Counted from the stretch's first letter, positions 1,822 through 56,787 are shown. The stretch: 64,000 nucleotides of DNA from Leucoraja ocellata (GCA_036785375.1 JAWMAR010000485.1:62001-126000), one strand, 5' to 3'. Made by a program: numbers and translations. The notes: generated by a model not told the origin, from the sequence alone.

Positions 1822-2043
1822 AAGGTTACACAAAAAAGCTGGAGAAACTCAGCGGGTGCAGCAGCATCTATGGAGCGAAGGAAATAGGCAACGTTTCGGG
1901 CCGAAACCCTTCTTCAGAAGAAGGGTTTCGGCCCGAAACGTTGCCTATTTCCTTCGCTCCATAGATGCTGCTGCACCCGCTGAGTTTCTCCAGCTTTTTT
2001 GTGTAACCTTCGATTCTCCAGCATCTGCAGTTCCCTCTTAAAC
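1822..2043 (+). mobile_element. Palindromic Penelope-derived mini-element with hammerhead motif
   Basis: 94-bp perfect inverted repeat 1822-1915/1917-2010 with a 1-nt spacer, plus 3' extension ending CTGCAGTTCCCTCTTAAAC; flanking direct repeat AAAGAAACAAAGGT at 1813-1826 and 2044-2057. Confidence 0.85.
1890..1917 (-). ncRNA. Minimal type I hammerhead ribozyme motif (Penelope-associated)
   Basis: Minus strand reads CTGAAGA-A-GGGT-TTCG-GCCC-GAAA-CG-TT: CUGANGA box, 4-bp stem II with UUCG loop, GAAA box, palindromic ACGU stem III, GUU cleavage triplet. Confidence 0.7.
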
Positions 2044-2493
2044 AAAGAAACAAAGGTGTTGGTTTCACACAAAGGGCAGTGGGTGTACAGAACAAGCTGC
2101 CAGAGGAGGTAGTTGAGCCAGGTACGATCGCAATGTTTAAGAAACGTTTGGATTGGTATATGGATAGGACAGGTTTAGAGGGATATGGGCCAAGTTCAGG
2201 CAGGTGGGACTAATGTAGCTGAGACATGTTGGTCAGTGTGGGCAAGTGTGTGCAGTGTGTGCAGCATCCGTGGAGAGACAACAAAATTAATGTTTCAAGC
2301 CTGATAGAGTCCCTCTGGTAGACTGATCAGGAAGGTTAAGATGCATTGGATCCATGGTGACTAGGTCATTTGGATTCAGAACTGGCTTACTCATAGTACA
2401 CAGAGGATTGTGGTGAAAGGGTATTATTCTGGCTGAACATCTGCGACCAGTGGAATTCTGCAGGGATCTGTGCGGGATCTTTGTTGTTTGTGA

Positions 2494-2503
<10 letters not shown>

Positions 2504-2535
<32 letters not shown>
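2504..2535. repeat. (TA)n microsatellite
   Basis: About 16 TA units inside the old CR1 fragment. Confidence 0.95.
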
Positions 2536-2538
<3 letters not shown>

Positions 2539-2619
2539 GACTTGGATTTAAATGTAGATGGGTTGCTTAGGAATTTGGTGGAGTTGCAGATAGTAATGAA
2601 GGATGTCAAAGTATACATT

Positions 2620-2722
2620 AGGTACAGGATACTGAGTTGGATGATCAGCCATGATCATATTGAATGGCGGTGCAGGCTCGAAGGGCCGAATGGCCTACTC
2701 CTGCAGCTATTTTCTATGTTTC
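2620..2722 (+). mobile_element. Severely 5'-truncated young CR1 3' end
   Basis: AGGTACAGGATACTGAGTTGGATGATCAGCCATGATCATATTGAATGGCGG...TTTCTATGTTTCTA is near-identical to 3871-3976; TATACA duplicated at both flanks. Confidence 0.8.
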
Positions 2723-3227
2723 TATACAACAGGGTATAGATCAGCTGCAGACGAGGGCGGATATCCCTATCAAAACATGAGAGGGGGGACACAATTTCTT
2801 GCAGGCCGCGCACATACCCACACACAAACACACAAACGCGAGGCTTCGGCCATGGGCCCTGTGGACGGTAACATCGGGAGCTGACCTGGTTGGTGACCGA
2901 CTCTGAACTCCAGCAACAGCAGCTTCGTCCACCCCAAATCGTGGGGCTTGAATCGGCACATTCGTGGGGCCTTTCATCACTTAGCACGGCTTAAAATCAG
3001 TCAACATCGGGAGCCTCGATCGCCTCGATGCAGCAGAGTGATTTTAAGCTGGGCCGGGCAATTAAAGGCCCCGCAAACGGGCCGATTCAGCCCTTAGAAA
3101 GCGTCTGATACCCGCTTGAATCTTTCAAAAGCTACAATGTGATAAATAGCACAAACAAATAAAACTGAAGCAAATTAATGCAAACAGAAGCACCAACCAT
3201 GGAAGGGGGAGAGAGAGAGAGAGATGG

Positions 3228-3976
3228 TGGCCGATTAGGAAAAGGAGAGATGCAACGAGACCTGGGTGTCATGGTACACCAGTCATTGAAAGTAGGCATG
3301 CAGGTGCAGCAGGCAGTGAAGAAAGCGAATGGTATGTTAGCATTCATGGCAAAAGGATTTGAGTATAGGAGCAGGGAGGTTCTACTGCAGTTGTACAGGG
3401 TCTTGGTGAGACCACACCTGGAGTATTGCGTACAGTTTTGGTCTCCTAATCTGAGAAAATACATTCTTGCCATAGAGGGAGTGCAGAGAAGGTTCACCAG
3501 ACTGATTCCTGGGATGTCAGGACTTTCATATGAAGAAAGACTGGATAGACTCGGCTTGTATACGCTAGAATTTAGAAGATTGAGGGGGAGATCTTATAGA
3601 AACTTACAAAATTCTTAAGGGGTTGGACAGGCTAGATGCAGGAAGATTGTTCCCGATGTTGGGGAAGTCCAGAACAAGGGGTCACAGTTTAAGGATAAGG
3701 GGGAAATCTTTTAGGACCGAGTTGAGAAAAACATTTTTCACACAGAGAGTGGTGAATCTCTGGAATTCTCTGCCACAGAAGGTAGTTGAGGTCAGTTCAT
3801 TGGCTATATTTAAGAGGGAGTTCGATGTGTCCCTTGTGGCTGAAGGGATCAGGGGGTATGGAGAGAAGGCAGGTACAGGATACTGAGTTGGATGATCAGC
3901 CAGGATCATATTGAATGGCGGTACAGGCTCGAAGGGCCGAATGGCCTACTCCTGCACCTAATTTCTATGTTTCGAT
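3228..3976 (+). mobile_element. Young 5'-truncated CR1 LINE (ORF2 C-terminus plus 3' UTR)
   Basis: Translates as RDLGVMVHQSLK...LYRVLVRPHLEYCVQFWSP...YEERLDRLGLYTLEFRRLRG, one frameshift near 3585, then SRTRGHSLRI...FFTQRVVNLWNSLP; TSD GAGAGATGG at 3219-3227 and 3977-3985. Confidence 0.92.
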
Positions 3977-6247
3977 GAGAGATGGGAAAAACATACTAAA
4001 TACTGTGAGTGACCTGAATGAGGGACTGACCTGCAAGCCAGCCAGGAAACCCGTTCGACCGTATTCCTTAATGACCTGACCCATTTAAATCCGATACCCG
4101 TTTAAATCTTTCCCATCCACCAATACATCCAATTAGTTCAAATAGTAATTGTACCCACATCAGACAGCATTGGAAATCAAAACACAACTGGTGACACATC
4201 GTGTTAATACGGTGTTAATAGAGACATATAACAAACGCTTAACATTGATACCCCCACTGTCTCACGGAAAGCGGAGATTTTAAGGGTTTTTTTTCACCTA
4301 ATTTCAAAATCCGGATTAAAAAACATGGGGCTGCGGAAATGGGCAGAGAAATAGCAGATGGCGCTTAACCCAGTCAAGTATGAGGCATTGCAATATGGGA
4401 GGTTGAATTTGACCCTTAACAATATTGATAAATTGATCCTAGTCCATAGCTCCCTGAAAATGGCCACATAAGTAGATAGAGTGGTAGAGAAGACATATGG
4501 CATGCTTGCCTTCATTGGTCGGGCATTGAGTATGGGCATCAGAAAGTTTCATTGCAGCTTTATAGAGTTTTGGTTAGGCCGTATTTAGAGTTTGTGTGCA
4601 ATTCTGGTCCTTTTCAGAAAGGATGTGGGGACCTTGGAAAGAGTACTGAAGTAAAACAGAATGCTGCCTAAATTAGAGAGTTTTAGCTATATGGAGAGAT
4701 TGTGCAAACTTAGATTTTTTTTCCTGAGGCATCAGAGGTTGAGGGGGACCTGCTGGGAGTATATAAAACGATGAGAGGCATAGAAAGAGTTGACTGTCAG
4801 AACCTTTTGTCCCCAAAGTTTAGAGGGCAAAGCTTTAAGTTGAGCGGAGCAAAATTTAAACGAGATGTGTGAGCATGTATTTTACCCAGAGAGTGTTGGG
4901 TTTGTTTGTACCAGCCCTTTCGGTCTTCTTGGGTGGGAGGATGGGGCGGTAACCAGTGCCCATTGAATCATGTGAACTTTGGAACGACAGCACTGCAGCG
5001 GCAAGCAAGCGCTGTGGGACATGTAGGGCGGGGAACAAAACAGCTCCTTCGACGGAAGGCCAATTCTCAGGCGGAGCTGATATTCCGGCAATTATCGAAG
5101 TTAGTGTCAACGCACTTTCATCCCAGAGTTTTCACAATTCCCATTTTAGCACGCCTTTCATCTTCGCCTCTACTCAACACACCGCCGATGCACATCTCCT
5201 CAAACCACTTCATAAATATTGCATTGATTAAAAAAAAAAAATGTTTAGTAAAACACAATCCTCCTAATGGATGATCGGATATTGTAAACCTGTTTGCTGC
5301 GGGAATTATTATTCTGGGGGGGGGGGGGGGAGTGGATTGATCCAGATGTCACCGTGGGAGAAATTATCAGTTAGGGATATTTTTTGGGGGAGGATGATGT
5401 TCTACAGAGATTGTAAGAATTTCACAGGCAGTTGGGAAAGGGCTGTTGCAGCGGGAGGGGTTTGGCGGTGGATATTATTTATAGATTTGAATTGTCAACA
5501 TGATGCTTACTTAAGCTGGGCGGGAGCTTGTTTGGCTTGGGTACCCTGCCCTGCCTATCTCAGGTACACGCCCAGAGACCTGGAAAATACAAGCATAAAA
5601 TTAACAGCATTTATTGGGCCGTAGGCTCACGTCCCCGACGCCGTGTTTGTGCTAATCTAACACCACTCCCCTCGCTTCCCGGTCTAATAGTCCGATTTAA
5701 GACGCGTTTTCCAATCTGCGTTACGCTAAAACGTCATAGGCATTAGTGCTTCAGCGCCCGGCGATATTGTGGTTAAAATCCATTCGGAGACGAGGGTGTG
5801 ATCAATTGAAAGCGCTGACCATAATATCTGGCTCCCGGGGGCGTATGGATCACAATCCCATTTAAATTCGATAAAAGGCATGTTAAACGAGCAAGCGTGC
5901 ACGTGTGCGCAGAAGTGAGAGCGGGTCTCAGACATTGATACTGCTCCGCTTTGCATTGAATATTGTAAGCACACAGGTTGATGGCTCTGAGTTCAGATTT
6001 CGCAATGCAAATATTGACTTCAGTCGCCTTGATCCCGTACGTCCACTCCCACAAACAGTTTGAGGGAGGGGGGGAGGGGGGGTGTCACAGGCGAGATTGC
6101 AGCCTTTACTGGCACGCCTTGCAATGAGGAGATGCACTCGGACGCCCACACCCCACCACACCTCCAGTGCTCCCTCCCTCCCGCTGCTTAAGGTGCAGTC
6201 AGCGGCGGCGCTGGGTGTTGGTGGCTTGGCGCAGGCTCAGTGTGTTT

Positions 6248-6255
6248 TGACGTCA
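6248..6255. promoter_or_regulatory. Consensus CRE (TGACGTCA)
   Basis: Perfect CREB/ATF palindrome about 480 bp upstream of the ATG, followed by GC-box-like GGAGCGGGGCAGAG. Confidence 0.55.
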
Positions 6256-6732
6256 GTGTGGAGCGGGGCAGAGGCTGGTGCACTCTCGGGCTCTCTCTCT
6301 CTCTCCATTGTCAGCAGTCGAACGATGCGATCAGGCTGAACCGCCGCCGCCGCCCAGCACATCTCACCCCCACACTAATCCACTGACAGCCTCGGCCGGC
6401 CCCAGTCCCCATTCTTTCTCTCTCTCTCTCTTTCTCTCTCCTCCCCTCCCCATCCGAAGGCTCATCCGCTGTCTTGATTGTGCAGAGCTGCGGCGAGAGA
6501 GTGAGGGGAAAAAAAATAACGCCAGCTTTTTTCCAGGATATTCGTGCTTCTGTACAACGGTAAAGGGACGGAGTGAGTCCGGCTGCTTTTTCCCCACCCC
6601 CCCACCTTCCGGCTTTGGATGTGCGATTAGAACCCCGGCGTCTCGCAGCGAGAGGGTTCAGTCGGAGCGAGCGAGTGTGAGTGAGTGAGTGAGGAGAGAG
6701 GCCAGAGCTGTGCGAATTTCCACACACTAACC

Positions 6733-6850
6733 ATGGGATGTACAATGAGCGCCGAGGAAAGGGCAGCCATGGAGCGGAACAAAGCCATCGAGAAATCCAT
6801 CAAAGAGGATGGTATCACCGCCGCCAAGGATGTGAAGCTGCTGCTTCTCG
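6733..6850 (+). CDS. GNAO1: G protein Go alpha subunit, coding exon 1
   Basis: ACCATGG Kozak context; [39 protein letters not shown](G); 118 coding nt followed by GTAAG donor, the standard Gi/o exon 1 length; Gly2/Cys3 acylation sites. Paralog identity not certain. Confidence 0.93.
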
Positions 6851-7070
6851 GTAAGCCCTGAGTTCCCCGAACCCCTCCCTGCCTCTTCCCCGACTACCCT
6901 CACTGACAGCCCCGGCCAGCAGGCAGCGAGCTCCCGGCAGCTCGGCGGGCCTGCCCGCTCACTCTAATCTCTCTTTATCTCCTTACATTCACGAACGCAC
7001 CCTTTCCCCCCCGTCCTCCGTAACCACTTTCTCTCATCATCCCTCGTTCTCTCTTTCTGTTTTCCTACAG

Positions 7071-8644: not shown

Positions 8645-8730
8645 GGAGATGGTGCAACTCAGTGGGTCAGACAGCATCTTTTCAGAAAAGTTAATAGGTG
8701 GCGTTTTGGGTCGAGACCCTTCTTCAGTGA
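8645..8730 (-). mobile_element. Degenerate Penelope-tail mini-element
   Basis: AACTCAGTGGGTCAGACAGCATC...GGCGTTTTGGGTCGAGACCCTTCTTCAG matches the family; hammerhead GAAA box mutated. Confidence 0.65.
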
Positions 8731-9539: not shown

Positions 9540-10200
9540 ATGTGTTATGACGGGCCCTGTGTGCGCTGAGCTGGGTCAGTGCGCGCAAGGGGTGCGTTTC
9601 ACCGCCGCTCAGTTCTGCGTGGGACCAGAGTTTAGCCCGGACTGTGCTCTCTGATCGGCCGGGATGAAAGGTGATAAACCCTGTCCTGTCGCTCCTGACC
9701 AAGAGCTCCATTCAGGGACTGTCCCGGCCCCCTGGATGGGGTTTTTAAGCTTGGAGCCAGACCAGTGGCAGGTTGGAGCCGGGATGAGGAGCCGGGGACC
9801 GAAGGGCGAGAGGCGGCGTGAGCTTGTGGAGACCGGTGGCGGCCGAGCGACTTTCAGCCGCTTTCGTTGGTGGACAGCGCCCAGGCAGATACGCCGAGCG
9901 GCTTCGGCAGCGCTCGGGCGAAGTCGGCGCCGCGGGAGGGAAGGAGAAGGCGGGGAGAAAGGCGGGGCTGAGCGGCCACGCAGCGGGCGGAGCTGCTCGA
10001 ATCCCCGCGGGTGCTCCGAGCCTGGCGTGCACTGGGTTAAAAGCCCGCAGCTCACCGTGCTGGCTCTGGGGAACGCTGTTAACAGCAGGAAGAGTGGCGA
10101 GGTGTGGTGCGGACATCAGCAGAGAGAACCATTCTTGTTTTCCTCACGACAATCCTGCCGAAATTGTCCCAATCTCCGCGCCGCCAAACAGCACAGAACA
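9540..10200. promoter_or_regulatory. Second, intronic CpG island
   Basis: Dense CpG and GGCGGGG boxes in otherwise CpG-poor intron; not similar to other repeats in the window. Confidence 0.65.
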
Positions 10201-13200
10201 CCCCGAGGCAATTAGGGAGTTGCACCTTTTCTTGTTGCCCCAGCCCTTGGCATGAGTGAGCTATGTACCACACAGGCATGAAGCACTGCCTACCAAAGAT
10301 ACAGTGTCTTGCTGCCTACCGTTACAGAAAGGGTGCTGGAAGCAAGGCTGTAATATGTTCACTTACACAGCACGCCTGTCGCTAAGACTGGTGTCACCAG
10401 TGAAATAAAACGAAGCTACTCTGCAGTTCAGAATTGAAATATGTTTTACCGTGTGTGTGACCAGATCTTGCCACACGGTTGGAACCCGGCTATGCGTGTT
10501 CTGAGTTTGATATGATGTGGTCTTTGCAGTGTTTCAACCGATTTGAGGTCGAGTGTTGACTGACCCGTGGAAATTGTACAGAAGTTGAAGTCCATTCAAA
10601 TGATGCAAATACAATCACTTATCTCTCAAAATAAATAATTTTCAAATATATTTACATTTTTTAAGTATTGTAGTACTGACCAATTGACACTACTGGCAAT
10701 GGCACCAAACCTAATTGTTGTAGGTGGATTCTGGACCAGTTTGGTTTTAAAGGAAAGAGATGTCGAATGAAAAACATTGTCAGCGTCTGAGAGTTTAATA
10801 GCTATGAAGGAAAATAGCATTACTATTAATCATTTGTGAATTATGGAGAGAGATAATGAATACAAAATATTGAATTATTCACATATCTTTAGTTGGGCAC
10901 GGAATGAGGGCAGGGACAAACAGTGGATACAGTCTCTTCGAAACTTTCCACTGACATACTCTGTATGATGTGAACAACAACATTTAGACATTTGAGATGC
11001 CCCTGGTGATATTATGCAAGAAACGCAAATGTTCAATGGATTTCTGAGCACGGTTGCTTATTTGCATTGCATGTGTACCTAGGGACATATCGAGCTATTG
11101 GCAGATACGTGACATAAACAATATTTGAGTCACAGCTGGTGGCAAATTGGCTTTGGACAATTAGGTAATTCTTAGTACAGACCAACATCTGAACATGCAA
11201 TGTCACTGGGTGGAAGTTCATGTTTATTAAATAGTTCTGCTTGCATTGATTAAGCGAAAGATTGAGAAAGTTGTTCTAAAATTGTTCATTGCTGGAATTC
11301 ACAATTGAGCTGCACACAATTCCAAAAGCCCTTTCCATCTTGGAGAACATTCAGAAATGTTAATCGATGTATGATACTTTGGTTGAAAGCATAATCATTT
11401 TTGGATACATCACAGAAACAGTCACGTATAACGAGTGTTAGAGCACCAAGTCTTGCCACAAGATGATCTGCAATAATGTGCAGAAAACTCACATTGAATC
11501 AAATTTATTTTGTTTTGGTTTTATTTTAGAACTCCCAATAGTACCACTGTTAGGTCCCTGATCTTTGCAATTCAAGATGATTAAATACCGTTATAATGAA
11601 CTTTTTGCACCTGATCCTGTGTAATCAGTTATTGTGGAGGGTGACAAGTGGGGCGAGGGGGTCCAAAAATAGCCTCTACCCACTGCTTAAATAACTAAGT
11701 CCAAAATAAATCTTTACATTGCATGGAATGTCACAATTCTATTTGCAATTAACTGGAAGTGTATTGTTGAGTAAAATTGAACTTCTTTGGGTTCTTAGTG
11801 GGAGAGTCTTTATATACCGGCAGAAATATTTTCGCATTTCGCAGCTAACAAAATGACTGTGTCATAGAGCAGCTGCTAAAGTCCAATTGTGTTCATTTGA
11901 AATGGCACGTAATCCATTTAATGTTTAGGTCGCAGCTCCTACAGCCCGTGTACTGCTCGTGAAATGCTGTGAAGTATAACACCTTGATGGCAGGTATTTT
12001 TCATATCATTCACTCATTACTGACATAATTACATTTTGTATCCGTCATAAACAGCGATTTATGAAGTTTGTGGTCATTTGGTCTGCTGCTGCTGACCTCC
12101 ACTCCTCCCCGTACCTACCCACATCTTGTTTTTAAACAAAGATACAATAAAAGGAATTGGGAGCTTCCAAGTGCTTAAATGGTTTCATGTAGAATATTAA
12201 GGAATCCCAAGCCGCTCAGCTGAAACTCATTAATGGTGTAATATTTTTCAGTGCATAATTGGTGAATGCACACTAAGAAAAAGTGCGAGTTGCACAAGAG
12301 AATTGGGGTTTGGAATATTTTCTTCAAAGCTTGAAACTTTCCAACTAAATTAATTTTTCCCACCTTGAAATTTTACCAATTATTAAAACTTCTAAGAATT
12401 TCAGGAATATTTTTATTCATAGACGAAGGAGATTTAGAGATCACCGTGTTTTAACATAAAAAGTGTCAAGATTCGGAATCCTATACAGTGGGGGAAAAAA
12501 AATAACACTTTCATTTCTGGTTTTGCCAGGACTGAGTCATGTGGTTAAACATTAAATAGTTTCGGATGAGAGCTATTTGTTTGTTGACGGGACAGAGCAT
12601 TACTAAATAAACTTACAATTCTGTACCTGGGGATGGTGTTAGATTACAGAGAAACCTAAAAGGGGATACCTGAAAAAAAGGTCTATAGATCTCTTACAAT
12701 GTGCTTATTAGTTGGTGCAAGTTCACAACACATTGTTCATTGATTGTCCACCATTTTTATTCATTTGTAATTGTAATAAAGGATATGGATGGCTAAGTAA
12801 AAAAACATACATCTCAATATTGGTGCAATGACTTTCTTTTCAAGGATGAACCTAAGGCTAATTGAAACAATAGTCAGGGAGTGATTTTCTTTAGGAGCTT
12901 AATGGGGCAATGTGGATAAAGTTTTATTTTTGTATCTTCTCACTGAGATATCCACGAGCGATTGATAAATTGGTTTCTCGGGCTGGGAAGTCTACATTTT
13001 GGGGGAATGTTTTCACAATAAGGAGTGAGATGAGGAAGCATTTCTTTAAAATGAAGGGTTGCATATATTTGAAAATCTCTACTTCAGGGGGCCACTGATG
13101 CTTAGTCATAGCACCATGTTTCTTTAGTGCTATTGGAGATGCTTTGTTCCAGTCAAGTAGAGAGTTTTCCGTCGCAATCCTGGTTTGTGCTGTGGAAATG

Positions 13201-40851: not shown

Positions 40852-40937
40852 GTACACAAAAATGCTGGAGAAACTCAGCGGGTGCAGCAGCATCTATGGA
40901 GCGAAGGAAATAGGCAACGTTTCGGGCCGAAACCCTT
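40852..40937 (+). mobile_element. Penelope mini-element, inverted arm only
   Basis: GTACACAAAAATGCTGGAGAAACTCAGCGGG...CGAAACCCTT, nearly identical to 1826-1911. Confidence 0.85.
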
Positions 40938-41802
40938 GCCACTGCCATTAAGGTGCCAAGACGTGGGGTTGAGTTTGACTCCAGCTGATACTGGCCACAG
41001 AGGCATGAGCTTGACCTTAACTTCCTCTTCTAGACAGTAGATGACAGCTGATTCCTGGATTAAAGTTCTGATTTAGGCTCTGAAGGTCTCTTCAAGTTCC
41101 CAGTGAGACTTCAAAAGGCAGTCTGGGTTTTCCTGCATGGGCCAATGCAGCAGCACAAGGCAGTGGGGCTTGGAGAGGGACACAACTGCATGGATTGTTT
41201 TTAGTACGTGTGACCCTGGTGAACCAGAGGCCTCCAGAATCCCACCCACTTGATCCAGTACCTGGAGCTTATCAGTTGAAGACCTCCTGGTCCTAATTGA
41301 TAGCAGAGCTCCTTGGGGTTTGCTGAGAGATGGCCAATGCTTCTCATCAAATGAGCTTCTCTGCAGAGGTCCTTGTTGGAAGTTAAATTTAGCGTGGAAA
41401 AGTGGCACTAGAGGCTATCGGACAGTTGCCTGTGGACACTGAATTGGAGAATGAATCATCAAATTTAATGAGCCCCAGGAGAGATCATTAATGAGAAAAC
41501 ATTTGAGACTTTTTTCAAAGTTTTATGAAAACTGCTTGGCTAGGGCTGTCGATTACCTTGGTTCGCACCTTCAAACCAAGATCTAAAATGTGCTTGTATC
41601 TATCTGCTTGACAAGGTGAACTGTAGGTGAAAAGAATGGTGCTTGCTGAGGATATTGTGGAATTTTCCTTCTATTTGTGGCTTACAGTATATTTCACTTG
41701 AGGTGCAGTGGTGTAGAATGCATGCCGGAGTGGGTTGGAGGTGGATGGGCAAAGATGTCATAAGTAACCGGAGTAAGATCTGGACAACCATTCATTTGAT
41801 AG

Positions 41803-41909
41803 ACACAAAGTGCTGGAGTAACTCAGCGGGTCAGGCAGCATCTGACTGAGTTACTCCAGCACCTTGTGTCTTATCTTTGATGTAAACCAGCATCTGTAGT
41901 TCCTTGCTT
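41803..41909 (+). mobile_element. Penelope mini-palindrome lacking the hammerhead centre
   Basis: ACACAAAGTGCTGGAGTAACTCAG / CTGAGTTACTCCAGCACCTTGTGT arms; TSD TTCATTTGATAG at 41791-41802 and 41910-41921. Confidence 0.8.
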
Positions 41910-42575
41910 TTCATTTGATAGCCTAGCTACTCTGTCCTGCAGGTACGTCTACGATTGTTTTGGCGTCATTATCGCCCATTATTCTTTTCCAACCATTATT
42001 TTACCTCGGTTGGGAAGCCTTGATTATAGAAACATAGAAAATAGGTGCAGGAGCAGGCCATTCGGCCCTTCGAGCCAGCACCGCCATTCAATATGAGCAT
42101 ATCTGAAAATACACAAACTTTGGTGAGAGGAGAGCACCCGCATTTTACTGCCCTTGAAGTTGGCTCCTCTGTTGGTAAACTGCTAGGAATCTTGATGTAG
42201 CACTCTTGATGAGGTGAAGATAATGGTTCTGATAAGAACAGAAGAACACATGAACAGGTTTCCAGCAGCTGTAGGAGCAGTCGACTAGGCACCTCAAGCC
42301 TACCCTGCCATTTAAAATGGTCATGTTTGATCGATGCTGGCCTTAGCAACTCTCATGTGCCAGTTCCCCATAACCCTTGATCTTTCAAATATTTATCTGT
42401 CTTCACCATCAATATATCTAATGGCCTGGCCTCCATCACTCTCAGGGGCAGAAAGTTTCAAGAATCTCTGGGAGAAGAAATTTCTATGCACATAATTTTT
42501 AGATAATCAAGCCCTTATTTAACAGCAATGTCTCGTTGATTGTTCCCTCTCCCACTTTTGAAAACATCTCCACAT

Positions 42576-42700
42576 CTAAAGAAGGGTCTCTACCCGAAAC
42601 GTCACCCATTCCTTCTCTCCAGGGATGCTGCCGGTCCCGCTGAGTTACTCCAGCTTTTTGTGTCTATCTTCGGTTTAAACCAGCATCTGCAGTTCCTTCT
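42576..42700 (+). mobile_element. Penelope mini-element, sense arm only
   Basis: CTAAAGAAGGGTCTCTACCCGAAACGTC...CTGCAGTTCCTTC; TSD TCCACATCTA at 42569-42578 and 42701-42710. Confidence 0.82.
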
Positions 42701-42749
42701 TCCACATCTACCATGCCAGGCTCCTTATTTATTTGAATGAGGTTCGTTT

Positions 42750-43200
42750 GACTGATTCCTGGGATGTCAGGACTTTCGTATGAAGAAAGACTGGAAAGAC
42801 TCGGCTTGTACTCACTAGAATTTAGGAGATTGAGGGGGGATCTTATAAAAACTTACAAAATTATTAAGGGGTTGGACAGGATAAATGCAGGAAGATTGTT
42901 CCCGATGTTGGGGAAGTCCAGGACAAGGGGTCACAGCTTAAGGATAGAGGGGAAATCCTTTACGACTGAGATGCAAAAAACATTTTTCACACAGAGATCT
43001 CTGCCAGAGAAGGTAGTTCATTGGCTACATTTAAGAGGAAGATAGATGTGGCTCTTGTGGCTAAAGGTATCAGGGGGTATGGAGAGAAGGCAGGTACGGG
43101 ATACTGAGTTGGATGATCAGCCATGATCATATTGAATGGCGGTGCAGGCTCGAAGTGCCAAATGGCCTACTCCTGCACCTATTTTCTATGTTTCTATGTT
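42750..43200 (+). mobile_element. Young CR1 3' fragment
   Basis: MSGLSYEERLERLGLYSLEFRRLRGDLIKTYKI; near-identical to 3500-3976. Confidence 0.9.
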
Positions 43201-44881
43201 TGAACTCCAGGGAGTATCGACCTAAACTGTCTCTTGGCAGGTCAACCCTCTCATCCCAGGAATTAGCCTTGTGGAACTCATTTATACTGCCTTCAACACT
43301 TCTATCCTTGCATCGGTAACTTATGTTTCTCTTTCCACGGATGTTGCCCGACCTGCTGAGTGTTTCCAGCATTTTCTGTTTTTGTTTCAGATTTCCAGCA
43401 GCTGCAGTTTAATATTTGATTTTTAAATAGTTCCTCAATTTCCAGAGCAATCTCTGCAGAGCATAACTGAGAAATGGGAAATTATTTTGACCACAAGAGC
43501 AAAATCAAAATGTCCAGCAGACTTCTTGAATGATATCATGGTTGAGCCTCTTCGATGAATTTTCAGGATTTTATTGAAAGGCCATTGGTGATATTCATAA
43601 TGCTGTACTCTCATCTCTGACGCTGAGATCATTTCCATTGTCCAAGCTTACAGCTTTACTGGCAGTTCCAGAGTTCCTGCCTACAATGACCACAGACAAC
43701 GTCTAGTAGGTAAAAACCTGCAGCTAAAACGCCTAGCCATGTTGGTACTGACTAAATTGATGGACTGGTATGAGAAAGAGAACAATTGTTCTCAGCTAAA
43801 TGTTTGCCCATTGAGATGAAACAACATGTGACCACAGGACTTCTAGCAAGAGGTCTAATTACTTGGATTACTCTTTCGATCAAACACGATAAAAAATTCC
43901 AATCAAGAAGACCCTGTAAGGACCATAATTTATTTTTGGTGGCAAATATCTGCCTTTTCTCAGCGAGAAAGGCTTTCTGTAAAATTGTTAAATTGTGCAG
44001 AAAGAATGGTAGCTTTTACCTAAACAACCACATCTAATCAGGAATGCAGCACAGATACTACAGCCTTCATCTGGACTGGACTTCCGAAGTCAGCCCAGAT
44101 TTTGTGCCCCATGTTCTGGAGTCTTGAACCGATGACCTGAGTATTTATACAATCATATTATTAACATAATTTCTAGGTTATGGTGTACAAATTGAAAGCC
44201 TATGTTTGGCTGTGCAGTGTGATTAGTCATCAAGGGATTGAATATTAATCAGGAAAGGTCTTTGAGAATAATGTCTGACACATATCTTGGATCATTCATC
44301 CTCTTAATAATAGGCCCTTACAGCATGACAACCTTTCGCACTTGTTCAAGATATGAAAATCCCAAATCGGTGGTCTCCTTTCAGCTCAAGGCTCGAAAGA
44401 AATCAGCTGTGATATTATTGGCAATACTACTGGAGTGAATCAGTGCAATCAAATCAGTTTATATTAACAACAACACTGTGAGGGGAAAGGACAGAAAATG
44501 AATATTTATTTAATTGCCTGCGGCCATAGTGGTTTGTTCCCTAATGTTTGTGTTGTATTGTAGGAAATAAAGTATTCAGATTCCTTTCCCCTCCACATGC
44601 TTCATACACGACCAACTCAGTCTTTATTGCTTGGACTAAAATGAGAATTGGTTTAATGAAGCAGAGCTGTTGACAAGCTCCCAGTATATTCTCTGCCCCT
44701 GGAGACACTGGTCGTAATGCAGGCAGGAGCATGGTATGGAAATATACAGCAGCACTGGTGGTGTTAAAGATGGCCCAGTAATCCAGCACCCCCACCCTGT
44801 TCTGCTCCTCAAAAACAACATGGCTGCATCCCAATGTCACCAGCACACCTTGAGTTTATTGATAGTTAAAGGCAATTGGTT

Positions 44882-45699: not shown

Positions 45700-45910
45700 T
45701 GTGGAAACAAGGAACTGCAGATTTGCTGGTTTGCTGGAGTAACTCAGCGGTTCAGACAGCATCTCTGGAGAACATGGATAGGTAACATTTGAGGTCGGGA
45801 TCTGAAGTCTGAAGAGCAGTCCCAACCCAAAATGTCACCAGAGGTGATGCCTGTTCTCCAGACTTTTTGCCTGACACGCTGAATCATTCCAGCATTTTTT
45901 GTCTTTTTTT
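45700..45910 (-). mobile_element. Older palindromic Penelope mini-element
   Basis: GGAACTGCAGAT...GCTGGAGTAACTCAGCGG arm, central TCTGAAGAG...CCCAAAATGTCACC, degenerate return arm. Confidence 0.65.
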
Positions 45911-48454
45911 CAGAGCACTTGCAATCCACCAATTATCCCAAGTTCAATGATTCCAAAATACATAACAACCAATTAAGTGATTATCATGGATGTAATGCAG
46001 GAAACATGGCGTGCCGAGCAAGATCCCACTATGACAAGGCAATCATCACTAAAATGTAGAGTGAATGGTAGCTGTTAGCATTGGTGAAAAGCTACGCTCT
46101 TTCAAAGAGTGTCTTGGGATCTGTTATGGTTTCCCAAGAGAAGCAGATGGGGCTATCCAAAGGATGTATGGAATGGGAGGGTGTGTATTTCGAAAAAACT
46201 GTCTCCTGCCTTCTGCAATTTCCAAGAGTGGGAATATTTTCTTTCAGTCCTGTCCTGTTAAAAACACAATAATAACATGGGGAATAAAATCAGCGCTGGC
46301 CATTCGGCCCCCTTTTTGTCTTCTCAGTAAGATTGCAGCATTTATTTCATCGCCACTTTCTTGCTCTTGAGCCCACGCCTTTTGATTCCTTTGATCATTG
46401 GAAAATTTACAGATCTCTCCCTTGGATATATTCTTAGCCTTCACAGCCTCCGGGGATGGAACATTCCAAAGATTCCTCCTCCCCGGGTGAATGCATTTCT
46501 CCTCCATTATCCCACGGCATCCATCTTGACTGCGCTGAGAGATTTTGACAGACAGCTGATGAGCGAGGAACCTCATGAGTGCATCATGACCCTGCTTGTG
46601 CATAACAGTGTAAGAATAAGAAATGCTCTGGAAGTCAGATGGAGACACAGCTGATCTCTCTAGCCACCTCTAGACCCTCCTCACAGATGCTGCCTAACCT
46701 GAGTGTTTACAGCAGTTTCAGTCTTTCCAACTCTTCTGACATGCTTTTTTTGTCTTTTAGGTTAAAGGTTGCGAAATGTTAAGAATTGTTTTGGATAAAT
46801 TCTTCTCTCTTTGGCTTCATTTCCTCCTTCTTCATTGCTCTATTCCTCAATATATAATCCCTGTTGCTTCCACTCTTTCACACTCATTCTCTCCAAAACT
46901 CATGGTCATGTTAACATGCATCTGTGAACCCAATCTTCTATGTTAGAACCTCACCTGTCACTCTTACCACAGCAATAAATTGGCAGCAGAGTCACCAACA
47001 ATATCCCCTGGCTGTGACCATGGTTCCCCATCCTTCCTCAATCGTCCTGCCATCTTTGCAGCTTTGGATGTGGTTCAGATTTGTTCCTTGTTGGACACCT
47101 GATGACCCTCCCCAGGTTCCAGCCATAGCCACGAAATCTCCTGCAAAGGCACTTCTCCCATTCAATTAGCATCACTGTCAGAATCCTCCCCCAAACACCA
47201 TCTTCCATATCATCCATTTGTTCTCCTTCAGTATTATCATTCAAAGGCATCAAGCAGGACACATTATTGACAGCCTTCAGTTCTGTCTCCCTATCCTCAT
47301 CTCCTCCTCTCACTACTTTTGTGCTCTCTGGTTGCCTGTCTGATACATAACACCATGTTGAAACCAGTGACAATTGGCTTGTTCATGCACAACCCTGAAT
47401 GAGTTGCATTTTACTCTGGTTAAAGGTTTTGAAGGTCAAAGCCAGGTCTGATGCCACAAGTTTGGTGCCATCCCATTCCAGGCCAGTTTTATGATGGGGT
47501 AGGTTGGTTCCGATCCCAGTATCCTCTCCAACCCCAAGATTATCATCTCTCCAATAGGAGTTCCTACTTCCTGCTGTTCTTTTTATGCCACACCACAATC
47601 AAAGTTGGAAACCTTTGTGCTTATTTTACCACCGACTGTCCGAGCTGCTCCCTCATCTTCAACATTTACCAAAGCAGGTGGTGATCCAAAATGCTTGTTA
47701 TATCCTAACTTCATATGTGAAAATTTGACTTGTATTCGCTACGGTTTAGAAGAATAGGAGAATGTCTCACTGGGAGGGCTTGAGAAGTGGCAAGACCAAA
47801 ACAAATTCAAGACTAGTACATTCTAAAACCAGTGTCAGCTTAGAAATTAGATAGTGATTATTTCGCATTAATGAATTCAGTGTCATGGCAATAACTGTTT
47901 GTAGGTACTTTCATTTTAATTTTAGAATCCCTCCAGCTGTTTTCTAGTGAGTAATGGTTGCACAACATGCATGGTTTCCACATCAGCAGCCTGCAAGTCA
48001 TGCCTTTCTCTGCCAACTAACCCACCCTTTTGGTCCATTGCTGGGAAAATTAGACCATCCTGGTGTGGCAGTGGTCAGCATTCAGGATCAACTCCGTACT
48101 TCCATGTGAAGTCAAAACATTGTGTGGGTTGCCCGCCTGACGGTGTTGGAGTTGCATGAAGTGAGAATGATGCACAGTTCATACAACAACATCAAAGGCT
48201 TGCCTTGTGCAATGCTGTGGTAACACTGACATCACTTTCAGTCTGGTGTGCCCTGAGGATGCGTTGAAAGGCCTGGCTCTACTCAGCAAGAAACACCGCA
48301 GGGGCCATCCTGACATGCAGCTCCTGAAAGGACAAATCACAGAGCAAGCAAAACTCTTCTAACACCATCTGGATTGTGCAAATGAATAAAGGGATGGTGC
48401 AATAGTGGGAGAGCGTTGCAATGATCAGAGGGTCTAACAGTAAGAGGGTGACGG

Positions 48455-50190: not shown

Positions 50191-50473
50191 AGTGATGCAG
50201 CAGTAGAGTTGCTGCCTTACATCGCCAGAGACCCTGGTTCGATCCTGACTACAGGTGCTGTCTGTATGGAGTTTGTATGTTCTCCGCTGACTGTGTGGGT
50301 TTTCTCCGGGTGCTCCGGTTTCCTTCCACATTCCAAAGATGTGCAAGTTTGTAGGTTAATTGGCTTATGTAAATTGTCCCCAAGGAGTAGTGTAAGATAG
50401 AACCGGTGATCATTGGTAGGCGTGGACTTGGTGGGTTAAAGGGCCTATTTCCACGCTGTTTCTCTGAACTAAT
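50191..50473 (+). mobile_element. HE1-like V-SINE
   Basis: GGTTCGATCC, V core, tail. Confidence 0.88.
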
Positions 50474-51927
50474 CTGCATTACGGCATAGAGGGAATGCTC
50501 AACAAGTCAGGGTACGGTACAAATTTGTGCTGGTGTTCAAATTTTGGAGGAGGATGTTGGCATAAGGATCTCATTCAGATTTACAAGGGAACCAATCTTA
50601 ACTGTGACAGGGTAACATTTACAGCAAATCAATATTTTATACACAGCTATAAAACTAATAGCAACCATATGCATGGGATGCAGGGCTCTGAACTGAAGTT
50701 TGTTGACTGGAATGATACTATGATCAGTACTGTATTATTGTAGCAAAGGCGAAACTGATGGGGAGGTGGCAAGTGAATTCCAATTCTGAAACAGTAGATG
50801 CAACATGGCTTATTTGCTTTATCTTGTTTTGGAACCTTGAAAGATATAGAGAGAGAGGTTAAGTCTCAAATGGCATCTGCATCTCAGATCAATAGGAAAT
50901 ATGTCCAGTGTTTAAAAATGCATACACTTTCCTTAGTGTTGTGTCTCACTGATCTATTGCATGCAATTACAACTACATGAGAATCCTCAGTCTAAATGCA
51001 ATCTCTGCTGTTGGAACTACAGTATGTACTAATTCTAATTCTAGATGACATATTAAATGTTAATTTAATTGCACAATTGGCCGCTTTGTATAGCAAAATA
51101 AGATTGCATTGAGATGAAACTGTTTTTGTAATTTCTCTTGGCTGTCAAAACTTTCAGTGGCAAGAGAGTAGTCCTGTACTAATATTAATTCCCTGGAATT
51201 TTGGAACCATTGTCCACAGAGTGCATGAAGGTTACATCGTGATGGACAGAAGGTCTAATGTGGAACGGTATAGTTACAATCGAATAATTACCATTAGGCC
51301 TTATTATTGTTTATGTATGCGAACAAATATTTGTTTTGCTTTGCAAAAATTGAATGGGATGCAATGGAACAGTAACCATTTATTTTGACTAAATTAATCT
51401 TGCAACTAAGACGTAATAAGTCATGTTAGCTAAAAGGACCTTTTGTGCAAGTGGAATAAATTGGTTTCACTGTTTGCGTTTATGGATCAACATAGTGCAA
51501 AGTCACAAGGAGCTACCAAAAAACATATTGCTTGCTCGCAAACTCTGCTCCAGCTTAGGATCGCTAACACTAAAACGTCAAATGATAAAACTTATTTAAG
51601 GCACTCTTAGTTAATGCATTACCAAATAATAATACTCTTAATTATGGTCCTCATCTATTCAATTACTAATCTTAAATACCTACAATGAAAACTACAAGGT
51701 CTCATTGGCTGATGACACGAAGATTGGTAGCATTGTAAATGTAAACCTGTGCTCAAATGATTTGAACATTGGCAAAGTTGAGTTTATGTACTTTGGACCT
51801 AAATAAATGAAAGAAGAGCAAACTTTCTACAATTGGAAAGCTAGAATAGGAGAAGACTCAAATGTCTACAATCTTTGGAATCCGGTGATTATTATTATGC
51901 AACCACTCCACACGCGTCTTGCTCATG

Positions 51928-51986: not shown

Positions 51987-53229
51987 GAGAATATTTAACT
52001 GTACACATATGGGCATAATCAAGACTTTACCTCCTAGTGTTCTAGTACTGTGTGGTATTTTGAGCCCCATACCCAAGGATATTGTCACTGGATAATGCAG
52101 TTCATATGCATCAATATGATGTTCAAATAGATGGAGGGAATTAGACGATAGATTAGATCAAAGTTGGAGCACATAATTCTGGATACCATTCTTTGAGAAT
52201 AGGTCAATTGGCCTTGGGAGCAGAGCAGCCTAGATTTATGAGAATATTACTTGGATTCCAAGGGTTAAATTACAATGAGAACCGTTTTGCCCTGGAGTAA
52301 AGAAGAGTAAGAAGGAATGAACAAAGTTTTCAAGATTCTCAGGGGACCTGTTTTGGTGGAAAGAGAAGATTATTACAGCTGGTTGATAGGTCTGGGGCAA
52401 GTTGAAGTGATTGGGCCTTTGAACATATTGGGAAAGACTGGTTCATGGAAAAGGGGGTGGATGTATGGAATTCTGCTCCACTCCTAGAGTCATACATCAT
52501 GGAAACAGGCCCAAGATGTCTAAGCTGGTCCTATATGCCCACGTTTGACACGTTTTCTTCTAAACCCTCCTATCCATGTACTTAAGTCCAAATGTCTTAA
52601 GTGTTGTTACTACATATAAAGATTAAATATAACATTTATAATAATATTAATAACATAATATTAAATGTTAGATATAAGATCTGACTGTGGGTAGTAAAGG
52701 ATTTGGAGCAAAGGCAGAGAAATAAAGTTCCATCTTAGATCTGTCATAATGCCAAAGGACACATTAGGATTGAGGAGCTGAGCGCCTGACACACATCCCT
52801 TGTTCATGAACTACTACCCTCAACCTCACCACTGGGCTCAAGTTCAGGCAGCTCTGATTTGAGCAACACATGAGCTCAATGTATTGCAGTTTCTTTCAAA
52901 TGTTGCTGTTTATTGAGGGGAAAGACATGAAGTTGTGTTTTCCAGATGTCAATTCAGGGTTTTAAAGTGTAACCTACTGCAGTCCTTCATATTGTTTAAA
53001 TAGCTACGTGGAGCATAAAGTAAAACAGGCAGTATAGACTCATTGACTAATCAGATTTGACAGATCTGCAGAGTTGGAGATTTCAGCCCTTCATTCACCA
53101 TTAATATTGTAGACAGCAATATTCCAACAGTGTAACTGGAGGAGGGAATCGGGTTACCCAGACAGAAAAGATAGTTCCCAGAAATGAGAAAGGATCCGAA
53201 AGATGCATTAGAGGATGATCTCGATCCGT

Positions 53230-53358
53230 CTGAAGAAGGGTCTCAAACCAAAACATCACCTATTCCTTTTCTCCAGAGATACTGCCTGAGCCGCTGTGTT
53301 ACTCCAGCATTTTGTATCTACCTTTGGTGTATACCACAATCTGCAGTTCCTTCCTGCA
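53230..53358 (+). mobile_element. Penelope mini-element, sense arm
   Basis: CTGAAGAAGGGTCTCAAACCAAAACATC...CTGCAGTTCCTTCC; AAGATGCATT duplicated in the flanks. Confidence 0.75.
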
Positions 53359-54129
53359 TCGGAAGATGCATTGCCAGGTTAAGAAATAAATGGATGGGTG
53401 GTGTGTTTGGAGGTAAATGATAGTAGAGAGTATTTGGGCCAAGTGGTCAGGCATGATGGAGTGCACTTATGTTATTAGTAAATTTGGAAATTCATTGAAA
53501 ATAATAGATAAAACAGAAATATAATCTTGTTTGTTACATGCTTTCTGCACTCACCAGCTTCTTGCGGTCCTCCCACAATCTTTTCTGTCGGCAAAAACAG
53601 GCCTGTGTGGGGCAAACTGAGGCTGTTGCAAATGGTGTTTTTGCAAATGAGAGTCTGGCTAAAATGCTACGAGCAATGAAATGAATGACGTGAGAATATT
53701 TGTTCAGAAGCAGCCAGAATCTACAGCAGCAGTCAGACTACATTTGCTGGAGGCATGGCGAGGCGAGATTGTGGCTGTGGCAATGTGTTTCAGCAGTTGC
53801 TATTCTTGCAAACAAGCAAGCAGCAGAACCACTCAACGAACAGAGTGTATGATTAAGGGAAGACTAGCTTGCCCCTAGCAACCTGTACAGGACATTATAG
53901 TGAATCCAGCAAGTATCACTATCCAGTAGCAATATGCCTCACCTTTCCAAGTACAGTATTTTAATATAATACCAGGAATCTGCACAATTTCAGTTTCATC
54001 CCAGGAACACATAGCTGGCATATTCCTCCAGTTGCCTGATTGTGATTGTGAGTTCCCCTGGTCCTCATCTTTCACCCAACACCCTCTGCAGCCAACACAT
54101 CTTTCTCTGACACTTCCGCCATCTTCAAC

Positions 54130-54822
54130 AATTGACTTTTCAGCAGTCCCATCTTTCCAGACCCCTTTCTACATGTTTTTGGTTTGCTTATCCCTTCCCA
54201 CCAAACCAGCCCTTGCACTGGCACTTTCCTCTGCAACTGCAGGAGATGCAATTCCTGCCCCTTCAGCCCCAATTTAACATCCATCCAGGGACCCCAGCAG
54301 CTCTTTCAGGTGAAATAGAGATACGAGTGCACCTCTTCCAACCTCATCTATTGCTGTTGGTGCTCCCGATGTGGCCTCCTTTACATCAGCAAGACCAAGC
54401 ATAGACTAGGTGACCATGTCAACCTTTCTGTTCTAGGCCTCCTCCATTGCCAGAGTAAGGCTGCACATAAATTGTAAGAGCAGCACCTTATATTCCACAT
54501 GGGTAGCATACAACCCAAATATTTGAGAAATGCATTCTCCAAATAATCAGCTCCCATTTTCTCTCCCTTTCCCCTGTCCCCTCGCCCACCACAGTGCACA
54601 CACATTTCTTCCAACTTCTCCTCCCACTCTACTCACACTATCCCTTTCTCCTCCTCTACGTTCAACCCTTTTCCAGCTTTCTCTCCCCAACTCCATCAGT
54701 CAGAAGAAATGTTCCGTCCCGAAACGGCCCCTGTCCACTCCTTCCACATGTGCTGCCTGACCTGCTGAGTTCTTCCAGCGCTTTGTGTTTTGCTCAGGAT
54801 TCCACGATCTGCAACTTCTTGC
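54130..54822 (+). pseudogene. Penelope-like (Neptune-type) 3' remnant: Cys-rich linker, GIY-YIG endonuclease and hammerhead-bearing tail
   Basis: One frame from 54220 reads GTFLCNCRRCNSCP...QVK*RYECTSSNLIYCCWCSRCGLLYISKTKHRLGD...LGLLHCQSKAAHKL*EQHLIFHMGSIQP; tail 54697-54822 matches the mini-element arm. Confidence 0.88.
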
Positions 54823-55638
54823 GACTCCTGCTTGTGATTGGTGGTATCTGATTCACAATTCTATTGAAGGCTGCTGACTCTTCTTTCCTCCGCCATCTCC
54901 ATTGGTTATTGAAGTGACTGAACAGCAGGTTTTGTTACACCGTCCAATGTCTTTGGGTGTGCCACATATTGAACAAAGGTACATGGAGTTCCCTTTGGCT
55001 CGGTGCATGGCAGTGGAGATGACAGTTCTCTGTGCACTGGGTTGACAGTCAGTAGAGAACAAACATCTAGTCGAAACAAAACACCTTCATCTCCACTTCC
55101 CTCCTTATGCCCATACCCTACCCCGGCTTCTGTCATTTTCCTTCAATGTATTTGAGAGTCTGGCAACAACAAATTGGATTTCTGCAGCTTCTTTGACATA
55201 ATATTTTACTGGAGCAGATTGAACAAAAATTGCTACCTAGCTTTTTCACCAATAGCCTGCCTGTGCTAAAAGGTATCTTTGATGCCAAAGCAAGCAGAAT
55301 ATGATCTGCTAGATACAGGTCAGTGCAAGAGGTTGGCTGCATCACTTACATCCAATCACGGATGAAAGAAGCCAAGCAAACCATTGTATTCAATCCGCCC
55401 AGAAGATTTCTTGACACCTGTGGGCCCCACCCATGATTTTTCTGGTTTGTGAGTTTATTTATTTTTGATTCCAAGCTCAAGTCTATAGTTCTGCATTTTC
55501 TGCAGTCTTGGGAAGGTTATAGATTTGTGCAGCAGAGAAATAGGTCCATCAGCCCACCATTTCCCTATCAACCATGCATATACCGATCATACTAGTTCCA
55601 TTTACCTGCATGCAGTCTGTCAAGGTTTATCAATATTC

Positions 55639-55741
55639 AGTCTGAAGAAGGGTCCCAACCTGAGACCTCACATATCCATGTTCTTCAGGGATGCTGCCTG
55701 ACCCGCTGAGTTATACCAGCACTTTGTGTCATTTAAAAAAA
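55639..55741 (+). mobile_element. Penelope mini-element, single short arm
   Basis: AGTCTGAAGAAGGGTCCCAACCTGAGAC...CCAGCACTTTGTGTC; TSD ATCAATATTC at 55629-55638 and 55742-55751. Confidence 0.78.
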
Positions 55742-56208
55742 ATCAATATTCTAATTCTGTTGATCTAATTCAAAAAATTTACACTGACAGATCAGCAAGA
55801 TGTGCTGCATTACAAAGCATTAATTATTGTGAATAAAATCACTCTCTAATCTGTTATCCGTCTTCTGCTCGATGTTGAATTACCAGGGTTTTTGTCTTTA
55901 TATTTTTGTGTTCAGTGTTCAGTTATGCTGACAGCTTGTCATCCGTCATTCTGACATGATAAAAGAATGTCATGACAACGCAAAAGCACTTGGCAAGTGA
56001 GGGCATCAAGACCTCAAGAAGAGGAATGAAAAATTGTGAGGCATTTCTTTTAATTTAATGGGGGAGTTGAATGAACAATGGAGCAAGACAAATGGTTAAA
56101 TTACATTTGTTAGCTAGTTTTGGGACAAAACTGTGGATTTGCCTCGGCCTAGCATAGCCTCAGCACAGGAGGTAGCACAAATGCGCAGTTAGTAGAGTCA
56201 CTGTTTTA

Positions 56209-56528
56209 GAGGCAGCACAGTGGTGCAGCGGTAGAGTTCCTGCCCTACTGCGCCAGAGCTGCAAGTTAGATCTTGACAACGGGTGCTGTCTGTACGGAGT
56301 TTGTGCGTTCTCTCTGTGACCGCGTGGATATTCTCCAGGTGTTCCGTTTTCCACTCACATTCCAAAGAAGGCAGGTTTGCATGTTAATTGGCTTCTGTAA
56401 ATTGTCCCCAGTGTGTCGGATAGAACTTGTGTACAGATAATCGTTGGTCAGCGCGGACTCGGTGGGCCGAAGAGCCTGTTTCCACACTGGAGCTCTATAC
56501 TAAACAAATCTCTAAACTAAATTAAACT
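56209..56528 (+). mobile_element. HE1-like V-SINE
   Basis: Head, V core, GGGCCGAAGAGCCTGTTTCC tail. Confidence 0.88.
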
Positions 56529-56653
56529 CTTAACTATATTGTCTCACAACGCTTGCGACCCCGGTTCAATCCTGGAGTTCACACAATATCCATGTACCAC
56601 ATGATTTTTTTTTCCCGAATGTTCTGCTTCCACCCATATCCCAAAGACATACA

Positions 56654-56787
56654 GTGTAGGAAGGAACTGCAGATGCTGTTTTAAACCGAGGATGGGCACA
56701 AAATGCTGGAGTAACTCAGCGGGACAGGCAGCATCTCTGGAGAGAAGGAATGCGTGGCGTTTCGGGTCGAGACCCTTCTTCAGACTG
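56654..56787 (-). mobile_element. Penelope mini-element inserted in an older SINE
   Basis: GTGTAGGAAGGAACTGCAGATGCTG...GAGACCCTTCTTCAGACTG; TSD AGACATACA at 56645-56653 and 56788-56796. Confidence 0.85.

Follow-up and report, generated by a model that had tools for sequence, protein, structure and literature searches.

A short repeat unit carrying a minimal hammerhead ribozyme motif is dispersed over 64,000 nt of the genome of Leucoraja ocellata (JAWMAR010000485.1:62001-126000; this single stretch is referred to as the window). Judged from its sequence, the unit represents the 3′ terminus of a cartilaginous-fish Penelope-like element (PLE) of Neptune type and consists of the core of the pseudo-long terminal repeat (pLTR) and an optional tail. 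The units are probably abortive short cDNAs of such an element that were initiated internally, primed on both strands of the target and integrated. PLE hammerheads, dispersed single truncated motifs, opposite-strand pairs, tails and inverted copies are already published, and the interest of the present inserts lies in the geometry of their ends, which bears on the PLE mechanism: two 3′ sites, inverted pairs of mixed type and a fixed 5′ boundary.

The link to a PLE is provided by a 5′-truncated Neptune-type piece at 54049–54826 on the plus strand, which is flanked by a 14-bp target-site duplication (TSD) with one mismatch (54035–54048 and 54827–54840). It contains a decayed coding end (~54070–54545), a pyrimidine-rich 3′ untranslated region, a decayed hammerhead unit from ~54697 (E=5e-17) and then the tail. 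Read from its translation, the coding end comprises a Cys-rich finger and a GIY-YIG-like motif in a decayed frame. An exhaustive search with this fragment found 802 relatives at E≤0.001 (best 1e-25), the three best being named proteins of whale shark, little skate and stingray (three of the nine looked up were named), and 149 relatives align at 54070–54545 by tblastn. Among 12 relatives scanned, GIY-YIG was matched in eight (one above the curated cutoff) and RVT_1 upstream of it in five, mostly below curated cutoffs. Furthermore, three cysteines preceding the endonuclease are invariant in all seven aligned sequences, and cysteines ahead of the nuclease are described as a marker of Neptune-type elements (PMC3846280). 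Because one TSD encloses both the GIY-YIG end and the unit, the relatives carry RVT_1 and GIY-YIG, and the cysteines are invariant, we assign the unit to the 3′ end of a Neptune-type PLE, and the linkage seen in this piece supports the original prediction, made from the sequence of the window alone, that the unit belongs to a PLE with a GIY-YIG endonuclease. Neither a sequence search of the PDB with one 816-aa relative nor a pattern scan of genomes of bacteria and archaea gave a match. At 17140–17690 on the plus strand lies another PLE coding fragment, more decayed and without a hammerhead unit, which spans the thumb to the start of the nuclease (tblastn E=2e-7).

The unit is present at all 14 positions at which the original prediction had placed a copy, and the repeat is therefore real. 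Positions are numbered on the copy at 56654 with the C of CUGA as +1, so that the predicted cut falls after +28. An nhmmer profile built from seven seed copies matched 29 times at E≤10, while the reversed window yielded no match; two matches at E=1.8 (32056 and 60011) were left out and one old arm was added, giving a final tally of 28 arms at 22 loci, the 14 predicted ones included. Arm limits were trimmed by eye and are accurate to ~3 nt. A 27-nt core pattern allowing up to three mismatches matched ten times in the window and never in 100 shuffles, and a strict minimal-hammerhead descriptor matched seven times (shuffle mean 0.26, maximum 3). Subfamilies A, B and C are distinguished, and the loci, together with the piece at 54049–54826, are the following:

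1826–2043, no single strand: inverted pair of subfamily A, with a tail-less arm at 1826–1918 (minus, core intact) and a tailed arm at 1917–2043 (plus, from +3)
2261–2325, minus: old relic with a broken core, weak (E=0.02)
8655–8727, minus: solo copy of subfamily B with a broken core and a short 3′ end (+72), no TSD
20884–20985, minus: tail-less copy of subfamily A plus an 11-nt inverted stub, 10-bp TSD
22526–22663, plus: old copy of subfamily C with an intact core, a non-palindromic stem III and a partial tail, TSD borderline
23985–24026 and 46681–46723: weak relics resembling 2261–2325
28395–28492, plus: decayed tailed copy starting at +21
29294–29492, no single strand: inverted pair of subfamily A, with a tail-less arm to −2 (minus), ~6 nt of filler and a tailed arm from +33 (plus), 15-bp TSD
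29923–30142, no single strand: inverted pair intermediate between A and B, with a tailed arm (minus, core intact) and a tail-less arm (plus, A14G), 18-bp TSD with one mismatch
36047–36188, plus: solo tailed copy of subfamily B with an intact core and three of four stem II pairs, 12-bp TSD
39856–39890, minus: tail-only insertion (+97 to +130; E=1.7e-5), 8-bp TSD
40853–40937, minus: tail-less copy of subfamily A from +7 (CUGA absent), no TSD
41803–41909, no single strand: inverted pair without a hammerhead, with a tail-less arm from +48 and a tailed arm from +63, 12-bp TSD
42576–42704, plus: solo tailed copy with G5A at the 5′ junction, 10-bp TSD overlapping the element start
43325–43410, plus: old tailed relic of subfamily C from +34
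45702–45908, no single strand: old inverted pair, with a tailed arm (minus, internal deletion) and a tail-less arm (plus, from −3), no significant TSD
53228–53358, plus: solo tailed copy with G12A, 13-bp TSD at 53197 and 53360
55639–55741, plus: solo copy from −3 with A14G and a partial tail, 10-bp TSD
56654–56787, minus: solo tailed copy from −4 with U16.1C, the numbering reference, 9–11-bp TSD
57160–57345, no single strand: very old probable inverted pair of subfamily C, left arm tailed, right end unclear

The 3′ ends of the 28 arms cluster, with nine at +87–94, 14 at +120–130, three at +108–110 and two shorter, and the two main sites lie ~40 nt apart. The 3′ end that had been predicted was found at nine of the 14 loci, the others stopping earlier, and tailed copies run ~10–12 nt past it. 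Truncation is polar: the hammerhead side is missing from 11 arms and the far side from two. Since truncation removes the hammerhead side, cDNA synthesis must start at the far end. At the 5′ side, 11 arms stop inside the unit, 16 end at −4 to +3 and one reads into the open reading frame (ORF), so that 16 of the 17 arms reaching +3 end at this boundary. Taking one value per locus fixed by a TSD (n=12), the boundary is reached at ten loci and is the stopping point at nine of them, for which p=6e-5 even with a truncation rate set ten times higher than observed. The cut site, +29, is not among the arm starts, of which the nearest are +21, +33 and +34.

Five of the 14 predicted loci (1822, 29294, 29923, 41803 and 45700) are head-to-head inverted pairs, an arrangement that had gone unmentioned, and all five scored pairs join a tailed to a tail-less arm (chance 0.013–0.031); the pair at 57160 was excluded from this count as one of its ends is unclear. 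The arms at 1826–2043 are identical over 90 nt within a TSD of ~14 bp, and those at 29923–30142 are joined through a TCAG-n-CTGA quasi-palindrome. At 29294 and 45700, the tail-less arm extends further 5′ than the tailed one and each arm holds sequence that the other lacks, which rules out simple fold-back copying of either arm from the other, barring a later deletion of the centre.

Significant TSDs of 8–18 bp flank 12 of the 22 loci. At a TSD score of ≥8, for which the null rate is 0.009 with random and 0.004 with mismatched flanks, 11 loci pass, and the TSD at 53230 was added by a wider search. Ten of the 14 predicted loci are among them, TSDs of 9–18 bp having been predicted for many copies; the TSD at 22526 is borderline, and none was found at 8645, 40852 and 45700. 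The duplicated sequences are 66% AT as compared with 57% in the window. The unit at 20883 splits the reverse transcriptase (RT) frame of a long interspersed element (LINE), pieces of which flank it at 20354–20839 and 20971–21336. A short interspersed element (SINE) derived from a tRNA was considered and ruled out for lack of a tRNA-like head and a simple-repeat tail: an Rfam scan found no tRNA match on any unit, and the unit ends are fixed sequence sites rather than simple repeats.

In a tree of the 21 of 28 arms that are at least 70 nt long, subfamily A (1822, 20883, 29294 and 40852) forms a 100/100 clade. Five of its six arms lie 0–1.2% from their consensus and one lies 5.6% from it; subfamily B arms lie 2.4–23% from a pooled consensus, where pooling somewhat overstates the age of B, and subfamily C is older than B. 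The prediction of a recently active set thus applies to the four loci of subfamily A and not to B or C. At least three waves of insertion would have occurred, a young A, an older B and an oldest C.

In the scheme that we propose, the short cDNAs would be made by the PLE's own RT/GIY-YIG protein from the two start sites that the 3′ ends mark, at ~+90 and ~+130 from the C of CUGA, the interval between them being the PLE tail. The endonuclease presumably nicks both strands in a staggered manner, and each 3′-OH could then prime at either internal start site. A single priming event would give a solo copy, tailed or tail-less, whereas priming from both nicks would give a head-to-head pair in which microhomology joins a tailed to a tail-less arm, and a cDNA that started at the tail site and halted at the upstream site would give a tail-only insert. 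The hammerhead would be selected in autonomous source elements and be a passenger in the inserted copies, the templates being uncleaved RNA. The PLE protein of the anole is reported to cleave and extend both strands, with its RT starting at two adjacent internal sites that bound the tail, to need RNA beyond these start sites and to use uncleaved RNA as template (PMC11167929). RNAalifold on ten tailed arms returned only a 4-bp hairpin without covariation, and thus showed no conserved structure at the RT start sites.

The fixed 5′ boundary has several candidate origins. It may be the 5′ end of the RNA, at a TCAGT that we take to resemble an initiator. An Inr-like motif in pLTRs is noted in PMC3846280. 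The boundary may otherwise be a stop at the TCAG-T-CTGA quasi-palindrome, and rotifer pLTRs are described as beginning with palindromes of 18 and 38 bp (PMC3846280). A link to a 3′ splice site is the third candidate: for D. virilis, a transcription start at 371 and an intron end at 491 are reported (PMC2377424), with the hammerhead core from 496.

Other readings of the template were rejected. An element RNA of the opposite strand, ending at the hammerhead, is contradicted by the sense of the ORF and by the truncation polarity, and no arm starts at +29 as expected for a template that begins at the hammerhead cut. A spliced template with a first exon does not fit the TSD-flanked solo copies, which have no sequence between the TSD and ~−4 except for 19 stem II-like nt at 53230. 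These ~19 nt (53210–53228), between the TSD and the unit, look as if RT had jumped to a second template. Small additions occur at other junctions too: the 6-nt filler at 29388–29394 is similar to the arm close by at 29294, and 40938–40945, at copy 40852, is an inverted copy of 7–8 nt of the left flank.

Several points weigh against the scheme of internally initiated cDNAs and the affiliation on which it builds. All observations come from a single window, the five pairs are a small sample, and the arms could also have become unequal through subsequent loss of sequence from the centre of the palindrome. Old copies lack TSDs, and the consensus of subfamily C was built from only six decayed relics. 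The biochemical precedent comes from the Poseidon clade and not from Neptune (PMC11167929). Pfam gave no family for the coding fragment of 54049–54826, and a word-indexed search for longer relatives yielded none among 123 candidates. The sole ORF-linked copy (54700) belongs to an old lineage, neither A nor typical B, and lacks the RT part, and no full-length or partial-tandem PLE (direct pLTRs around an ORF) is present within the 64 kb. Lastly, the 11-nt inverted stub at 20883 fits a fold-back better than start-site priming.

Fold-back of the cDNA at the 5′ quasi-palindrome, followed by a self-primed second strand, is a possible but doubtful origin of the inverted pairs, in which the palindrome would set the 5′ boundary. 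Besides the stub, it would account for the junction at 29923, which passes through TCAG-n-CTGA, and for variants common to both arms of a pair, and it would be in line with the palindromes at the 5′ ends of rotifer pLTRs (18 and 38 bp; PMC3846280). However, the ends of the second arms coincide with those of solo tail-less inserts, at the +90 site, and at 29294 and 45700 each arm has sequence that is absent from the other.

We also think it unlikely that the units are a true non-autonomous family, in which short masters transcribed from ~−4 would be mobilized in trans in the manner of a SINE. The sharp 5′ boundary is what such masters would give, and the young 100/100 clade A has no ORF-linked member in the window; rotifer pLTRs are reported to suffice for mobilization in trans (PMC3846280), and it has been argued that retrozymes derive from PLEs as non-autonomous elements (bioRxiv 10.64898/2026.07.22.740005). 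Nevertheless, tailed copies cannot descend from tail-less ones, 64 kb is too small to expect a full-length A element, and, if the anole analogy holds, a mini-element ending at an RT start site should lack part of the binding site. Because the copies end at the start sites and the anole protein needs RNA beyond them, the copies should not propagate, which favours by-products. Where the original prediction had offered both non-autonomous elements and truncation products, the evidence thus favours stereotyped truncation products over self-propagating elements.

A bolder elaboration would make the mini-elements the Penelope equivalent of retroviral strong-stop DNA, a scheme that we regard, as a whole, as improbable. 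The transcript would begin at the initiator-like TCAGT just before CUGA, and a protein dimer, using both target nicks, would prime two cDNAs on a single RNA, one at each start site. RT would run off the 5′ end after 90–135 nt and normally make a jump to the transcript's 3′ end, which hammerhead cleavage at +28 of the downstream pLTR would leave with a terminal redundancy of ~31 nt; failed jumps would integrate as mini-elements, possibly hundreds per megabase. If true, the scheme would assign the PLE hammerhead a specific role and would unite the pLTR, the tail and the inverted structures. Against it, solo junctions show no extra G, the signature of a cap, at least two copies include −4, and in anole RNA-seq as reported in PMC11167929 no reads end at the cut site.

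The hammerhead itself is well defined at the level of the consensus, which matches the minimal PLE hammerhead in its CUGANGA, GAAA and NUH core, the extra base before G10.1-C11.1 and a paired stem II. The consensuses of all three subfamilies retain 11 of 11 core bases, and the palindromic positions 15.2-16.2 are CG in A and B. Between lineages, none of the 11 core positions varies as compared with 45 of 107 others (p=0.004), in support of the PLE-type minimal hammerhead that had been predicted; on comparative grounds, this invariance points to selection in the source elements. In B copies, core and remainder decay alike (10/100 versus 154/1133 non-CpG sites, p=0.36). The 11-nt core is intact at six of the 14 predicted loci, and core and palindromic stem III together at four, three of them in inverted pairs. 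The motif predicted to begin the unit is not kept throughout: copy 40852 lacks CUGA, 41803 has no hammerhead, and 42576, 8645, 45700, 53230, 55639 and 56654 carry core substitutions.

Few intact cores are not the only indication that the inserted copies are best read as mostly inactive ribozymes; the same conclusion follows from short and weakly predicted stems, the absence of arrays and the neutral decay of the core. Stem I is limited to 0–2 contiguous bp in all 12 arms checked, and the pairing probability predicted in context for five copies is at most 0.14 for stem II and 0.04 for stem I. Stem II had been thought to covary between subfamilies, but the difference is one-sided (U-A to U-G) with a loop change, and no two-sided change was found in six stem pairs tested over 13 arms. 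An Rfam scan gave 17 matches at E≤10, all below the gathering score and none to a hammerhead family; the sub-threshold miRNA matches at 1871–1961 are artefacts of a perfect palindrome.

It is accordingly very improbable that the copies act as functional ribozymes, cleaving as dimers and spreading, like retrozymes, through cleaved or circular RNA. The consensus does fit the minimal PLE hammerhead including the palindromic stem III (PMC4209133), and all four A-versus-B changes in the motif are compatible with the structure. However, no head-to-tail dimer or array was found among ten tandem rows or the 22 loci, and the paired copies lie on opposite strands, which leaves a relevance of the suggested dimer cleavage at these loci unsupported. 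In addition, no copy starts at the cut site, the preferred predicted dimer, in three tested, is a stem II duplex, and eight of nine frog retrozyme dimers are reported not to cleave (bioRxiv 10.64898/2026.07.22.740005). The prediction that the copies act as ribozymes is not supported, given the neutral core decay and a stem I of ≤2 bp. A miniature inverted-repeat transposable element (MITE) of a DDE transposon, for which the family was rightly said to be easily mistaken, can be dismissed almost completely, as six loci look like perfect or decayed palindromes but the solo copies have no terminal inverted repeats (five tested; 4–9 of 15 ungapped matches), TSD length varies from 8 to 18 bp, truncation is polar and the unit is linked to a GIY-YIG coding end.

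The remainder of the window is rich in other repeats. LINE RT remnants, which we take to be CR1-like, lie at 3169–3886 (plus), 20354–21336 (minus) and 2311–2472. A dispersed SINE-like family of ~300 nt ends in short repeats such as (CTAAA)n, with ~10 copies on the plus strand and more on the minus strand; it has one weak tRNA match, at 31934–32013, and presumably resembles the shark HE1 SINE. In the region 39824–39898, the tail-only insert directly follows the (CTAAA)n tail of one SINE-like repeat. Another dispersed family (D12, D17) is often found beside LINE remnants. Two GC-rich stretches with long open frames, at ~5900–6900 and 9600–10250, are probably host promoter or first-exon islands. 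The copies of the two dispersed families are as follows:

409–733, 829–1185, 21568–21769, 24551–24860 and 31942–32102, plus: SINE-like copies
38892–39215, 50192–50490, 56210–56521, 60828–61109 and 63603–63895, plus: SINE-like copies
2543–2726, 3794–3977, 26305–26418, 35425–35639, 42040–42111 and 43015–43198: D12/D17 repeat copies

These inserts bear on how PLEs replicate and on why they keep a hammerhead, as the starts and stops of RT and the resulting junctions are recorded in them in large number, and counting them can test both-strand priming and the strong-stop scheme. If the window is typical, ~22 inserts per 64 kb would amount to ~340 per Mb, an extrapolation from one window. Counting motifs would overstate the number of working ribozymes, and the palindromic inserts are liable to be annotated wrongly as MITEs or microRNA hairpins. 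If transcribed, the inverted pairs (1815–2017, 29312–29437 and 29960–30142) would give near-perfect RNA hairpins of 90–100 bp, a possible source of small RNAs. Repeat catalogues probably already list the family, under a Penelope name. A literature search returned no account of it in cartilaginous fish, and no strong-stop, two-site twin-priming or fixed-5′-stop model for PLEs; both are weak evidence, as most subscription papers, key ones included, were outside its coverage.

Compared with known systems, the unit shares with the PLE hammerheads of PMC4209133 CUGANGA-H, a stem II closed by G-C, GAAA, a two-base palindromic stem III and NUH. As here, that study describes mostly dispersed single motifs from truncated PLEs and opposite-strand pairs 100–700 bp apart. 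Helix I is 2 bp here and mostly 3–5 bp there, with 2 bp in D. virilis and a few others; no cartilaginous fish was found among the species of its alignment figure, and, in the parts of it available, the ends of solo copies are not mapped as they are here. Non-long terminal repeat retrozymes (PMC7229834; bioRxiv 10.64898/2026.07.22.740005) are likewise short, non-coding and PLE-related with a type I hammerhead, but they form head-to-tail arrays of ~170–400 nt, absent here, with mostly canonical hammerheads; the bioRxiv study, which treats tandem retrozymes, includes one chondrichthyan genome.

Penelope, Naiad and rotifer PLEs (PMC3846280, PMC8557442, PMC2377424) are reported to have, as here, an inverted 5′-truncated copy beside the element and solo pLTRs, with a 30–40 bp tail usually at one end only and TSDs of 8–10 bp; here, in contrast, the whole insert is usually only the 90–135-nt end. 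Inverted arms of which just one is tailed are described in PMC3846280 and PMC8557442, and the published explanation of the tail was resolution by the endonuclease and, later, RT start sites. The closest parallel in mechanism is the Poseidon PLE PAc of Anolis carolinensis (PMC11167929). The linker here is of Neptune type, and A and B lack a start codon at stem II; neither inverted insertions nor a fixed 5′ stop come up in the main text on PAc. In PAc as in the present units, the hammerhead precedes two RT start sites in AC-rich sequence by ~100 nt, a tail lies between the start sites and the targets lean towards AT; cutting and extension of both strands and an uncleaved template are shared with the scheme proposed here.

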